64,000 nt of DNA from a plasmid, in NCBI RefSeq assembly GCF_057098645.1, contig NZ_JBXSPU010000002.1; one strand, written 5' to 3'. Positions 24,001 to 27,000 of this stretch are shown one piece after another. Positions within the stretch are counted from its first letter, which is position 1. Each line of letters opens with the position of its first letter. The position numbers were made by a program.

Positions 24001-27000
24001 CTGTATTTTAATGAGTAAATTTTATTCATGGTTTTGTATATGGCGTTTTCATCACCAGCCTCAAGATCCATTTCGAAGCAATTGTGATGAAAACAGCTCT
24101 GTTATTTATAAATAAAGCTCTCAGCCATAAGAGCCATACACCAATACCAATACCCCATGAAAAACAAAAAATCAACCAGACAAACAGAATGAAAACAAAA
24201 AATAAATCATTTGGTTTTATTCTTTTTATTAAAAACATAAAGTAATGAGAGGTATTCAATGATGCCAGTGTCTGCGATACAGTAAGGACGCTCAAAATTG
24301 GTGTTTGGATCTCCTAACGTTAATATAATCAGTGTGCCTGCTCTAAATAGCTGTGCCGAATACCGCTACACTTTTACCAGCCCATGTTTACCACCGGGGA
24401 ATGGGCTCACGGTTTCCATAAAATAATGAACCTTTTTCAGCTGTTCGCCACCGCTGTAGGAACCCGCGAGTCGAGTCAGCCGGAGAGAATTTCACTCCCT
24501 GGCTGCTCATGGAACCGTACGTGACACTCTCGCGTCATACGGCTCTTGATCACTCATTCGATGCACGTAGTAAATACCAGTGGACAAATAGCTTCGGATA
24601 CTCCTTCCTTACCCGTCAGCTTTCGCTGAGCCTTCCGGTTCGAAAGTCTGTATTTAGACAGCATCCACTTGAGCAGACGTGACTGCATTGCACTCCACAG
24701 TCGATAGTTGAAATTTCTGGACCAGAACTTTCCGTAGTACCCGATCCAGCCTCTCACTATCGCATTGTAGCGCCTCGCAAAATCCAGCAAGCGCTCAGCT
24801 GTTGAGCGATGTATACGCCACTTCTTGATTGTTTCTGTTATTTTGCGCATTGCTGCATTTGACGCACCCGGCATGCATTTTCGGTACAGTTCGCCTTTGA
24901 AATTCTTCAGCGTACGCACTTTGAAGTCATATCCGAGAAAGGTGAAACTCGTTGCGACGTTTCTCCTTTTAAACGTGTCAATGTAGGCGATATTCGTTTT
25001 CCCTGCATTCAGGGCCAGCCCGACTTCCGAGAAGCGCTCCGATAACCTGTTCTTCAGCCTTGTTGCATCACTCATTCGTGAACAATGTACTACAATATCA
25101 TCAGCGTACCTCTCAAACGGTACCCCCCGATATTCTCTTTCCATCCACAAATCAAATGCATAGTGAAGGAACAAGTTAGCAAGTAGCGGACTAATGACCC
25201 CGTCCTGCGGAGTGCCTCGTGTTCGGGTTATTAATTCTCCATTTTCACAACTCTGCATTGGCGCTTCCATCCAGCGTCGACAGTACAGGATGACCCATTT
25301 AGGCATCCCGTGGTGTTCCAGTGCTTTGAGCACCAGATCATGTCTCACATGGTCGAAAAACGCACTGATGTCCACTTCCAGTATCCAGCTATAACGCCAG
25401 CACCGGATGGCACATTGCTTCAGAGCGTCATGAGCTGATTTGCTTGGTCGGTAACCATATGAATCAGCATGGAAAATCGGGGCAAGCTTTTCTTCCATGA
25501 AAAGTTTTATCGCTCCCTGAGCAATTCGATCGGATACTGTTGGGAGCCCCAGAATGCGCTCCTTGCCATTCGACTTCGGGATCCGTTTTTCCAGCACTGG
25601 TGGCGGAAACCATGTTCCCGAACATAGCCGGTTCCAGATCTTGTATAGATTGCCATCACGTTGCTGGTCGAACATTTTCAAAGTCTGTCCGTTGCATCCG
25701 GGGGCTCCCTTGTTGCGACGCACATCCAGATATGATGCCCAGACCAGTGCTTTTGGTATTTCAAATGATTTTCGTTGCATCGGTTACGTCATCCCCTTTT
25801 GGGTTGTGTCTTCTGCAATGAATGTGATCCCCATCCCTTCTCTCCAGACCCATTACAGATTTTTCATCACTACTACGAATGAGTCCGCCCCTGTTTCCCG
25901 ATACGTGCCGGAAACAGGTTCTCACGTTCCCTGAGATGGTCTGGCTCGGGCTCCTGCTGCCTTCACACCGGATGCTGCGCAGTCAGTAAGCAGGTGACTT
26001 CTGCGCTTGTCAGGGGACGGCTCTACGGCCCCATTTTGACATCATCTAAGATTTCGATGCATCATCGGACAGTTTACTTTCGTTCAGCTTCCCGAACCCC
26101 ACGTGACAGTCGATCTCTGCCTTTTCCCGAGTCGCTCACCACCTCATTCCTTAGAATGAAGCAGCACCGGGTCGTTTGGTCAGTGCTCCTGTAAACCCTG
26201 ACCGGAGGGCCCACCTCCACCCACCTCAGAGCATGGATAACTTATGCTGCAATTTTCATATTGTTGCCATAATCCAGTCCCATTCACGTTGTGAGAGCTT
26301 CTCAGCACCAACAGAGAGCAGAACTGTATCAATGCTTTTGCGGGTCAACATAAAGGGATGGGGCGTGCGGCAACAACAGGACTAACGGGGCCGGTTTTCA
26401 ATTTGCAGCCGCCAGGCTGCCGTGGTTCCTTAGGGCGGTGCCCATATTACGAGATAAGATCAAGCAATGAGTTAAGTTATAACAGGGGCCTGAATATATA
26501 GGGGGACAATATCTTGAAAAATATCAGTAAAATTTTAAAAAAAACATGCAAGTATTGATTTTTACAGAGTGGCAATAAAAAATTAATAGAAAACAAACGC
26601 GCATGAAGGTGGTTAATGCTTACATCTAAAAAAGAAATGCAGTGTTCTAAAAATAAACAAGAGGATAATTTAACGTTATTGTTAACCAATTACATTTCAT
26701 ATCAGAATATAGTTATATTTACGGGGGGAATCAGTTTAAGATAAGAAACAAGAAAGAATTCACCGAATACACAACAGGACCAAAATCATTGTTTTTTTTG
26801 GCAAAAAATACTCGCTGGGACATGGAAGTTGTCGGAATCGATAATAGTAATCCGTACAGGAAAATTATAATTGATGATGCATTAATTAAGTTGCTGCATT
26901 CAATATCATCTGATGACTCTTGTTATGTAAAAAAAATATATTTACCGCGGACCTTAATGAAACGCAATTGAATATAGTTTACAATATAATTGAAGATACA

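Follow-up and report, generated by a model that had tools for sequence, protein, structure and literature searches.

A 5'-truncated, frameshifted copy of the group II intron E.c.I3 among insertion sequence remnants on a plasmid

Described class D introns and the identity of the element

RmInt1 (Sr.me.I1) from Sinorhizobium meliloti is the experimental model of the class D / IIB3 introns, an active retroelement whose protein combines RT and X domains with a class-specific C-terminal extension but has no D/En domain; it lies on the sense strand of an insertion sequence. E.c.I3 of Escherichia coli is placed in the same class in the literature and resembles RmInt1 in these traits by description, but the host insertion sequences differ, RmInt1 being found in ISRm2011-2 of the IS630 family and E.c.I3 in the tnpC gene of IS66-family elements. 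Sinorhizobium matches also occurred in the plasmid searches, with S. meliloti at 33% among the matches listed, which is probably another intron. E.c.I9 of E. coli ATCC 8739 is likewise assigned to class D (Toro and Martinez-Abarca, 2013, Table S1). Like E.c.I3, it starts with GUGUG, shows the same order of elements in domain I (a GGNGG..CCNCC hairpin, CCAAAC and GGUAGUGAG) and has a nearly identical domain V. However, it is a separate intron with patchy nucleotide similarity to E.c.I3 and another insertion site, and the E.c.I9 copy is full-length. Here, we compare these systems with an element in the window, i.e. the whole stretch of 64,000 nucleotides of plasmid DNA analysed, which, in contrast to the active RmInt1, is very probably a relic.

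The copy in E. coli 536 is listed as E.c.I3-2b, class D, at NC_008253 4007952-4009775 (Leclercq and Cordaux, 2012, Tables S2/S3) and is reported to be 99% identical to the E.c.I3 reference; E.c.I3 has been grouped as IIB (PMC8283771), with IS679 given as its target in the literature. This copy (L004 3982-5805, based on the 536 coordinates in Table S3 of Leclercq and Cordaux) was used as the blastn query, and the window matched it with 98.3% identity at 26272..24470, corresponding to intron nt 20-1824. In the database, an intron with more than 95% nucleotide identity to the reference is named as the same intron (PMC3552965), a threshold that the window element reaches with its 98.3% to the 536 copy. 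Judged by this identity, it is a copy of the catalogued intron E.c.I3 and as such already known. The first-pass annotation was right in that a group II intron is present on the minus strand, with an RT/maturase ORF, domains V and VI and Rfam scores above threshold: Intron_gpII (RF00029, domains V and VI) matched 24470-24547 (minus strand) with 54 bits at a gathering score of 40, and Group-II-D1D4-2 matched 26102-26218 (minus strand) with 92 bits at a gathering score of 36. An identification as E.c.I4 or as a relative of RmInt1 was considered and dropped, as E.c.I3 is indicated both by the coordinates in E. coli 536 and by the IS66 surroundings; E.c.I4 is described in the literature as a class A intron that targets IS3-family elements. 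The window and 536 copies share the same ORF, domains V and VI and the 3' exon (IS66/IS679 tnpC, in the remaining 28 nt), but the window copy lacks nt 1-19 and the 5' exon and has a 2-nt deletion and private substitutions in the ORF and the ribozyme.

Intron ends, flanking debris and ribozyme structure

The element and its immediate flanks are arranged as follows.

24470..26272, minus strand: presumed relic of E.c.I3, intron nt 20-1824 of 1824, with 1803 nt kept
26273..26430, minus strand: IS91-family remnant, comprising the region upstream of the IS91 tnpA and the first 27 codons of a small upstream ORF
24442..24469, minus strand: 3' exon remnant of 28 nt from an IS66-family tnpC, codons ..FAGSDSSGE..
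24343..24441, minus strand: remnant of the 3' end of an IS630-family transposase gene, directly abutting the tnpC exon scrap

With GUGUGUCACG at its start and GACUCGAC at its end, a complete E.c.I3 is 1824 nt long. In eight relatives, the most distant with 68% protein identity, the intron always starts with GTGTG(T/A)CACGAAGGA, has a length of 1821-1848 nt and ends with TGACTC(G/T)AC, which takes the form TGACTCGAC in seven of them and TGACTCTAC in one (L010). Upstream of nt 20, the window sequence departs from all full E.c.I3 copies; intron nt 1-19 are missing, and with them the 5' splice site (GUGUG) and the 5' strand of the closing helix of domain I. The place of these nucleotides is taken by the IS91-type remnant, two recognisable sequences being cleanly joined with 1 nt of microhomology. 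That an IS91-like remnant adjoins the 5' side had been noticed in the first-pass annotation and was borne out, as the sequence matches DNA that precedes an IS91 transposase gene. The window retains none of the 5' exon and only 28 nt of the 3' exon, the sole match in the window to a joined-exon query. The ends proposed earlier had to be moved. The true 3' end is 24470 instead of 24414, since positions 24469-24414 hold the 28 nt of the IS66 tnpC exon and then the IS630-family remnant. On the 5' side, the real limit of 26272 replaces two candidates: 26223, with GTGGG near 26224, belongs to a domain I helix with covariation support (nt 61-71 with 353-363), while GTGAGCG at 26139 falls inside the conserved internal motif GGUGGUGAGCG covered by Rfam D1D4-2. 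GTGAA at 26287 in the IS91 flank was rejected as a cryptic 5' splice site, as it is not GUGYG and no closing-helix partner strand follows it.

The ribozyme domains were located at the following positions.

25922..26272, minus strand: domain I, 5'-truncated (intron nt 20-370), lacking GUGUG and the closing-helix strand nt 6-10 UCACG
25887..25921, minus strand: domain II hairpin, helix 19 with 5 pairs and a compensatory change
25830..25883, minus strand: domain III, helices 20-22
24512..24545, minus strand: domain V, 34 nt, GAGCCGUAUGACGCGAGAGUGUCACGUACGGUUC, with AGC triad and 2-nt bulge (Rfam Intron_gpII; RNAalifold on alignment A5)
24472..24509, minus strand: domain VI, with a bulged branch-point A at 24476, the 7th nt from the 3' end

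The family alignment of domains I-III (RNAalifold, alignment A4) gave 136 predicted pairs, 61 of them with compensatory changes; 97.6% of the cells are paired as opposed to 37-45% in slid controls (0 of 500 shuffles). Domains II, III, V and VI are recovered in these alignment-based folds; in the window copy, domain I is 5'-truncated and its closing helix broken. This helix (nt 6-10/366-370, numbered 6-10/393-397 in the pair counts) is 100% paired in nine relatives, with a compensatory change from U-A to A-U, and is a gap in the window copy, where its 3' strand CGUGA at 25926..25922 is unpaired. Full copies and eight relatives begin with GUGUG(U/A)CACG, and the window copy has neither a GUGYG start nor a closed domain I. 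It keeps all helices of domains I-III except the three nearest the 5' end, two of which, the 5'-most, lack their entire 5' strand (nt 6-10 and 13-15), the third (nt 19-24) only its outermost pair. Domain V forms 14 pairs in RNAalifold and, as described earlier, directly follows the ORF, its helix beginning 8 nt past the stop codon (about 10 nt in the earlier description). The domain VI stem has 5 pairs with compensatory changes in relatives, and the intron terminates in ..GAC at 24470. Four window-unique changes affect columns of domains I-III that are invariant in nine relatives, and two of the four break pairs, and nt 316 and nt 451 are among the privately mutated positions; in domain III, a window-only C>A at 25841 disrupts an otherwise invariant G-C pair. 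Two further window-unique changes lie in the linker between domains V and VI and in the domain VI stem, where G>A at 24500, seen in the window copy alone, results in an A.C mismatch.

The RT/maturase gene and the decay of the copy

Three features describe the coding part of the intron.

24554..25780, minus strand: RT/maturase ORF in domain IV, 408 codons, in the correct frame for codons 1-389 only
24613..24614, minus strand: site of a 2-nt deletion (CT) relative to three other E.c.I3 copies, with the frameshift at codon 389/390
24553..24612, minus strand: true C-terminus VRKEYPKLFVHWYLLRASNE, now out of frame, matched at 100% by residues 391-410 of the 536 protein (tblastn)

The 408 aa RT/maturase ORF with YADD and without an endonuclease domain, as first annotated, was confirmed at 24554..25780 (minus strand). 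It carries ...FERYADDIVVH... and RT motifs 0-7; the Pfam search of its product returned only RVT_1 (residues 67-285) and GIIM (311-385), with no HNH/En or D/En domain, and NCBIfam TIGR04416 (group_II_RT_mat) scored 377 bits at a cut-off of 300. However, the designation "intact" does not apply: the frame is open, but the C-terminal codons have been put out of frame by the 2-nt deletion. Residues 1-389 of the 536 protein match 25780..24614 (tblastn), after which about 19-21 codons are out of frame and the conserved motif PxLFxHWYLLRASN is lost, a motif kept as PxLFAHWYLLRASN in ten relatives and sharing LFAHW with the class D intron E.c.I9. In class D proteins, the C-terminal extension is reported to be required for the maturase and mobility functions, with Molina-Sanchez (2010) as the cited source. 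The out-of-frame extension is damage to the window copy and not evidence against class D. PGAP annotates ltrA in the truncated plasmid arrangement as a pseudogene, but this flag is not independent proof of damage, because the published 536 copy is likewise flagged ("missing N-terminus"). The N-terminal reason given was rejected, as the window and 536 copies have the correct N-terminal frame (NKGAPG); an extra C in this region occurs in the TW10828 and CFSAN029787 copies and not in the window or 536 copy.

Before the frameshift, the ORF has 10 window-unique substitutions, 8 nonsynonymous and 2 synonymous, with D30N (in PGxDG) and G193D (in TPQGG) at nearly invariant protein columns. The locus lies in an IS-rich segment of a virulence plasmid, with the per genes on one side and a serine-protease-type autotransporter gene on the other. 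The same truncated arrangement with its flanks recurs at 99.9-100% identity in eight further plasmids, whose sources are wastewater, pigs, dogs and humans. The suggestion that the intron is potentially still mobile is contradicted by the lack of nt 1-19 and of the 5' exon, the frameshifted maturase C-terminus and the mutated invariant positions in protein and RNA. Because of these losses and mutations, and of the fusion of the exon to the IS630 remnant, we regard 24470-26272 (minus strand) with high confidence as a degenerate, non-autonomous copy of E.c.I3 (class D, IIB), a passively inherited fossil. What speaks against this is that the ORF remains open over 408 codons with an unharmed YADD and that domains V and VI are nearly perfect; some residual RT activity is possible.

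It is also conceivable, albeit very unlikely, that the relic owes its retention to an open RT gene that is expressed and serves either as a free-standing RT or as a trans helper for other E.c.I3 copies. The 408-codon open frame with RT motifs 0-7 and YADD would suit such a use. The conservation of the arrangement in the eight other plasmids would suit it as well, but this near-identity is equally explained by recent common descent, and the excess of nonsynonymous over synonymous window-unique changes, affecting D30N and G193D, speaks against it, as does the frameshift in an extension that is reported as necessary for class D maturase and mobility functions. Moreover, neither another E.c.I3 copy nor a homing site was found within the window. 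That the RT gene has been co-opted as a free-standing RT, serving the plasmid or the host in some way or helping in trans, and is not junk, is given very little credence indeed.

Class, insertion site and meaning of the locus

The first-pass annotation had assigned the element to class C (IIC), i.e. to an intact, compact and perhaps still mobile intron of about 1.8 kb with stem-loops as its target. Class C introns (GsI-IIC, Di.ze.I1, So.gl.I1) do resemble E.c.I3 in the absence of an endonuclease domain, the compact size and their sister proteins, and an RT/maturase with YADD and a good domain V would fit them as well; according to the literature, their insertion sites follow terminator or attC stem-loops, and EBS1/EBS3 are the only exon-binding sites that they use. 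With 154 bits, the class C RT of GsI-IIC is even the best sequence match of the E.c.I3 protein among solved structures. However, the similarity to the class D E.c.I9 protein is greater (322 bits, 44% identity over 407 residues, the C-terminal LFAHW region included), and pairwise scores place the E.c.I3 protein nearer to E.c.I9 than to GsI-IIC or the E. rectale/R. intestinalis RTs. The name E.c.I3 was not found in the class D table of Toro and Martinez-Abarca (2013), and its probable membership in class D rests on the published label and the pairwise similarity to one class D member, E.c.I9. Although the E. coli target has a short GGCC-GUA-GGCC hairpin some 15 nt upstream of the insertion point, this hairpin is not conserved in the exons of relatives; no terminator or attC stem-loop was found at the insertion sites, nor a conserved hairpin among the upstream exons of relatives, and the E.c.I3 lineage is inserted inside the tnpC coding sequence. 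The 34 nt domain V with AGC triad and the lack of a 5' splice site, a 5' exon and an in-frame maturase C-terminus do not suit an intact class C intron either. Since the element is, at 98.3% identity, E.c.I3 (published as class D / IIB), with a protein nearer to E.c.I9 and an insertion inside tnpC, the class C reading is unsupported and appears extremely improbable.

Joining the 536 exons yields an in-frame IS66 TnpC (..AVGRKNWLFAGSDSSGEHAAVLYSLIGTC..), and the uninterrupted tnpC site is present in 1685 E. coli genomes; in IS679 tnpC, the target site reads ..GGAAAAACTGGCTCT/TCGCGGGTTCC.. The insertion lies inside the tnpC reading frame in E.c.I3 and in six of the seven distinct relatives with readable flanks, and the insertion point (after ..GRKNWL) is common to relatives down to about 68% protein identity from environmental metagenomes. 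In the window, the 3' exon remnant is tnpC at the expected junction and the 5' exon is deleted, so that the site is half preserved. The sequence for recognition of the lost exon is still present.

26018..26024, minus strand: EBS1 AGAGCCG, in the terminal loop of a domain I hairpin whose stem is supported (helix 17)

In a complementarity scan, EBS1 pairs with UGGCUCU, the 7 nt that end the 5' exon of IS66 tnpC and that this locus has lost along with the exon; EBS1 occupies the same alignment column in relatives and shows partial covariation with their exons. For EBS2, which is expected in IIB introns, two scans gave no candidate of at least 5 bp conserved across relatives, the 4-bp candidates being UCUU, which occupies the internal loop beneath the EBS1 stem, and GUUU, located in a conserved hairpin loop.

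A functional E.c.I3 is situated on the sense strand of an IS66-family (IS679) tnpC, between the codons ..GRKNWL and FAGSDS, and is excised from the transcript by splicing with the help of its own maturase. When it enters vacant tnpC targets, EBS1/IBS1 pairing guides the reverse splicing, and reverse transcription comes next. Having no endonuclease, class D introns would use nascent DNA at replication forks as the primer, an established view that draws on the analogy with RmInt1. In the window copy, a rearrangement with an IS91-type element took away the whole 5' exon and intron nt 1-19, a deletion joined the remaining 28 nt of the 3' exon to the IS630 remnant, the 2-nt deletion threw the conserved C-terminal maturase extension out of frame, and point mutations have gathered at conserved protein and RNA positions. 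That the 5' truncation and the frameshift are sequencing or assembly artefacts of a locus with a complete E.c.I3 has a negligible probability. A 2-nt indel as the cause of the frameshift and the difficulty of assembling IS-rich regions would suit such an error, but the same junctions and 2-nt deletion recur at 100% in three complete plasmids that were assembled independently and at 99.9% in a further five, and the left junction is a clean join of IS91-type sequence to intron nt 20.

As a fossil copy of a catalogued intron, the element is ordinary and of little significance in itself. A suitable annotation would be a 5'-truncated, frameshifted E.c.I3 pseudo-element amid IS91, IS66 and IS630 debris, and a functional ltrA or a mobile intron would be the wrong label for the locus. 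The exact tnpC insertion point of the E.c.I3 lineage is a mildly useful by-product, and the locus is one more case in line with the literature, in which most group II introns of Enterobacterales are described as inactivated copies on mobile elements.

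Identity of the intron

On the minus strand of the window, the signals of a group II intron are accompanied by remnants of mobile elements on both sides.

Features of the intron copy and its flanks (intron nt counted from the full 1824-nt E.c.I3)
24554-25780 (minus): RT/maturase ORF of 408 codons, containing FERYADDIVVH
24470-24547 (minus): domains V-VI, gathering-level match to Rfam Intron_gpII
26102-26218 (minus): gathering-level match to Rfam group-II-D1D4-2, whose model spans intron nt 74-190
26273-26430: IS91-family remnant replacing the intron 5' end, matching DNA just upstream of the IS91-family transposase gene in other plasmids
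24469-24442: tnpC 3' exon remnant of only 28 nt, fused to the 3' end of an IS630-family transposase gene

The sole Pfam matches in the ORF are RVT_1 (residues 67-285) and the group II maturase domain GIIM (311-385), and it scores 377 bits against NCBIfam TIGR04416 (group II intron RT/maturase; cut-off 300 bits). The first-pass annotation had described an RT/maturase with YADD and without an endonuclease domain, a nearby domain V and an IS91-like remnant adjoining the 5' side; each of these is recovered here, and the core of the observation is real, far beyond chance.

Megablast matches to the element were numerous among plasmids and chromosomes of E. coli and Shigella. With at least 80% of the 2.1-kb query covered, it is present in 142 plasmids and, out of 5426 complete E. 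coli genomes, in 55; the far larger megablast totals take in matches to flanking IS debris. In E. coli 536 it sits within an IS66-family tnpC. The single copy of this strain (NC_008253 4007952-4009775, 1824 nt) was described as the class D intron E.c.I3, which targets the IS66-family element IS679 (Leclercq and Cordaux, 2012; PMC3522654), and E.c.I3 is included among the group IIB introns (PMC8283771). Window 26272..24470 is 98.3% identical to the 536 copy across intron nt 20-1824. Because a single name covers all introns of >95% identity in the intron database (quoted in PMC3552965), we assign the window copy, on its sequence identity, to E.c.I3, a catalogued intron that is already known.

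Boundaries and loss of function

The strain 536 intron starts with GTGTGTCACGAAGG and ends with GGCTGACTCGAC. Its exons joined without the intron encode an in-frame IS66 TnpC (..AVGRKNWL-FAGSDSSGEHAAVLYSLIGTC..), and the uninterrupted site, annotated tnpC, occurs in 1685 E. coli genomes at 90-98% identity. Eight relatives with proteins 68-81% identical to the window ORF were fetched from an Acerihabitans-derived read assembly, a Pectobacterium genome, and marine and other metagenomes. They are 1821-1848 nt long, and each begins with GTGTG(T/A)CACGAAGGA and ends with TGACTC(G/T)AC, as TGACTCGAC in seven and TGACTCTAC in the locus L010. Based on these ends and those of the 536 copy, the intron ends in the window at 24470 and not at 24414, the 3' limit given in the first-pass annotation. 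Both of its 5' end candidates were rejected, as 26223 belongs to a domain I helix formed by nt 61-71 with nt 353-363, on its 5' strand, and 26139 falls inside an internal GGUGGUGAGCG motif under the D1D4-2 model.

Beyond intron nt 20 on the 5' side, the window no longer resembles any of the full copies. The IS91-type remnant includes the first 27 codons of a small ORF located upstream of the IS91-family transposase gene, and its junction with the intron shows 1 nt of microhomology. A copy on the TW10828 plasmid keeps its 5' end complete, and its 3' exon runs on for ~180 nt as far as the IS66 end before the same IS630 flank begins, which indicates that the window arrangement was derived via further deletions. 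No further E.c.I3 sequence or tnpC homing site was found elsewhere in the 64-kb window.

Nine full introns and the window were aligned over the first ~510 nt and folded with RNAalifold, which predicted 136 pairs, 61 of them with compensatory changes. Paired cells amount to 97.6% on the predicted structure compared with 37-45% when partners were slid by 1-3 columns, and none of 500 shuffles reached the observed values. The helix closing domain I pairs nt 6-10 (UCACG) with nt 366-370 (CGUGA), where U-A is compensated by A-U in two relatives, and a second small helix near the 5' end uses nt 13-15. The window copy lacks the GUGUG 5' splice site and the 5' strands of both helices. Covariation supports the fold of domains I-III in the family; domain I of the window is left unclosed.

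Group II splicing needs a 5' splice site, the IBS1/IBS2 partners of the exon-binding sites in the 5' exon and a closed domain I, and mobility needs a lariat ribonucleoprotein. Since the splice site, the 5' exon with IBS1/IBS2 and the domain I closure are gone, the window copy should be unable to splice and, with no lariat ribonucleoprotein formed, unable to move; the maturase tail is frameshifted as well, and the first-pass view of the copy as potentially still mobile is not supported. Four private changes fall at domain I-III columns invariant in the nine relatives, two of which break pairs (nt 316 and nt 451), one more private change lies in the linker between domains V and VI, and another puts an A.C mismatch into domain VI.

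Nor is the RT/maturase intact, as had been assumed. Set against three further E.c.I3 copies, the window alone has lost 2 nt between 24614 and 24613, which puts the C-terminal tail out of frame: in tblastn, residues 1-389 of the 536 protein align in one frame (25780-24614) and residues 391-410 (VRKEYPKLFVHWYLLRASNE) at 100% in another (24612-24553). The tail PxLFAHWYLLRASN is kept in ten relatives, and the window ORF ends in unrelated residues. For class D proteins, Toro and Martinez-Abarca (2013), citing Molina-Sanchez (2010), report that the C-terminal extension contributes to maturase function and mobility. Private substitutions before the frameshift are 8 nonsynonymous versus 2 synonymous, and D30N (PGxDG motif) and G193D (TPQGG) are private at nearly invariant columns. 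The pattern in ORF and ribozyme is the one expected once selection has ceased to act on a sequence, which counts against a use of the still-open RT gene, a reading we regard as highly improbable. We are confident that a known intron is present here as a real but dead copy.

The E.c.I3 copies L002, L004 (strain 536) and L005 are each damaged differently. The EBS1 stem of the 536 copy contains a mismatch. In the TW10828 and CFSAN029787 copies, a C-run at codon 26 is one C longer, which shifts the N-terminus out of frame; the former also carries deletions of 36 nt and 3 nt, and the latter is 5'-truncated at ~nt 36 and joined there to another part of tnpC.

Distribution and surroundings

Eight other plasmids, from swine, dogs, humans and wastewater, carry this truncation and frameshift between identical flanks (99.9-100% identity); the NCBI pipeline annotates the ltrA of the arrangement as a pseudogene. 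The relic lies among IS debris, with per regulatory genes on one side and an autotransporter gene on the other.

Surroundings in the window
20088-24071 (minus): autotransporter, 1327 aa, immediately downstream of the relic; serine-protease-like N-terminal region (GDSGSG motif), C-terminal beta-barrel (TIGR01414)
26616-28187: EPEC per operon remnants; PerC intact (27918-28187, plus), perB and AraC-type perA annotated as frameshifted on pCAU16175_2, an identical plasmid
28444-28732 and 29613-30134 (plus): second, unrelated group II intron remnant; 5' part matched by D1D4-3 at 131 bits and D1D4-1 at 70 bits in Rfam, with ~95% identity to a different E. coli intron that carries a maturase/ltrA annotation; ORF fragment matching the maturase end of TIGR04416
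28938-29636 (minus): IS66-type tnpA/tnpB insertion splitting the second remnant in two
30123-30905 (minus): IS91-family transposase C-terminal fragment, 78 bits, under the cut-off of 125
30949-32172 (minus): ISL3-family transposase, 277 bits, without the first ~100 family-profile positions
152-268 (plus), 8655-8771 (minus), 46246-46362 (plus): ALIL pseudoknots (IS3-family frameshift signals), ~120 bits each
48466-48555 (plus): CopA-like antisense RNA, 93.5 bits, typical of IncF replicons

The IS91 and ISL3 fragments (30123-32172) are more IS debris close to the second remnant. The pseudoknots and the CopA-like RNA agree with an IS-rich IncF virulence plasmid.

Class and insertion site

The first-pass annotation had placed the intron in class C. 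The 536 protein is closer to that of E.c.I9 (44% identity, 322 bits, whole length including the C-terminal LFAHW), which is listed as class D in Table S1 of Toro and Martinez-Abarca (2013), than to the class C GsI-IIC RT (154 bits). The E.c.I9 RNA shares the 5' GUGUG and the domain I motif order of E.c.I3. Class C introns insert after terminators, whereas the E.c.I3 lineage inserts within coding sequence; a conserved stem-loop was looked for in the 5' exons of the relatives and none was common to them. The name E.c.I3 was not found in the class D table of Toro and Martinez-Abarca (2013), and a scan of the relatives for EBS2 gave no conserved candidate of 5 bp or more. The published label and the pairwise protein similarity to E.c.I9 point to class D / IIB in place of class C.

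The insertion point is the same codon of IS66 tnpC in six of the seven distinct relatives with readable flanks. This codon, after ..RKNW(L/I), is shared by relatives with protein identity as low as 68%, among them marine TARA contigs and others from the environment (loci L011-L017 compared with L004). The relative L018 has an unrelated insertion site, yet its last 6 exon nt fit EBS1. The association between the intron and IS66 elements appears to be long-standing.
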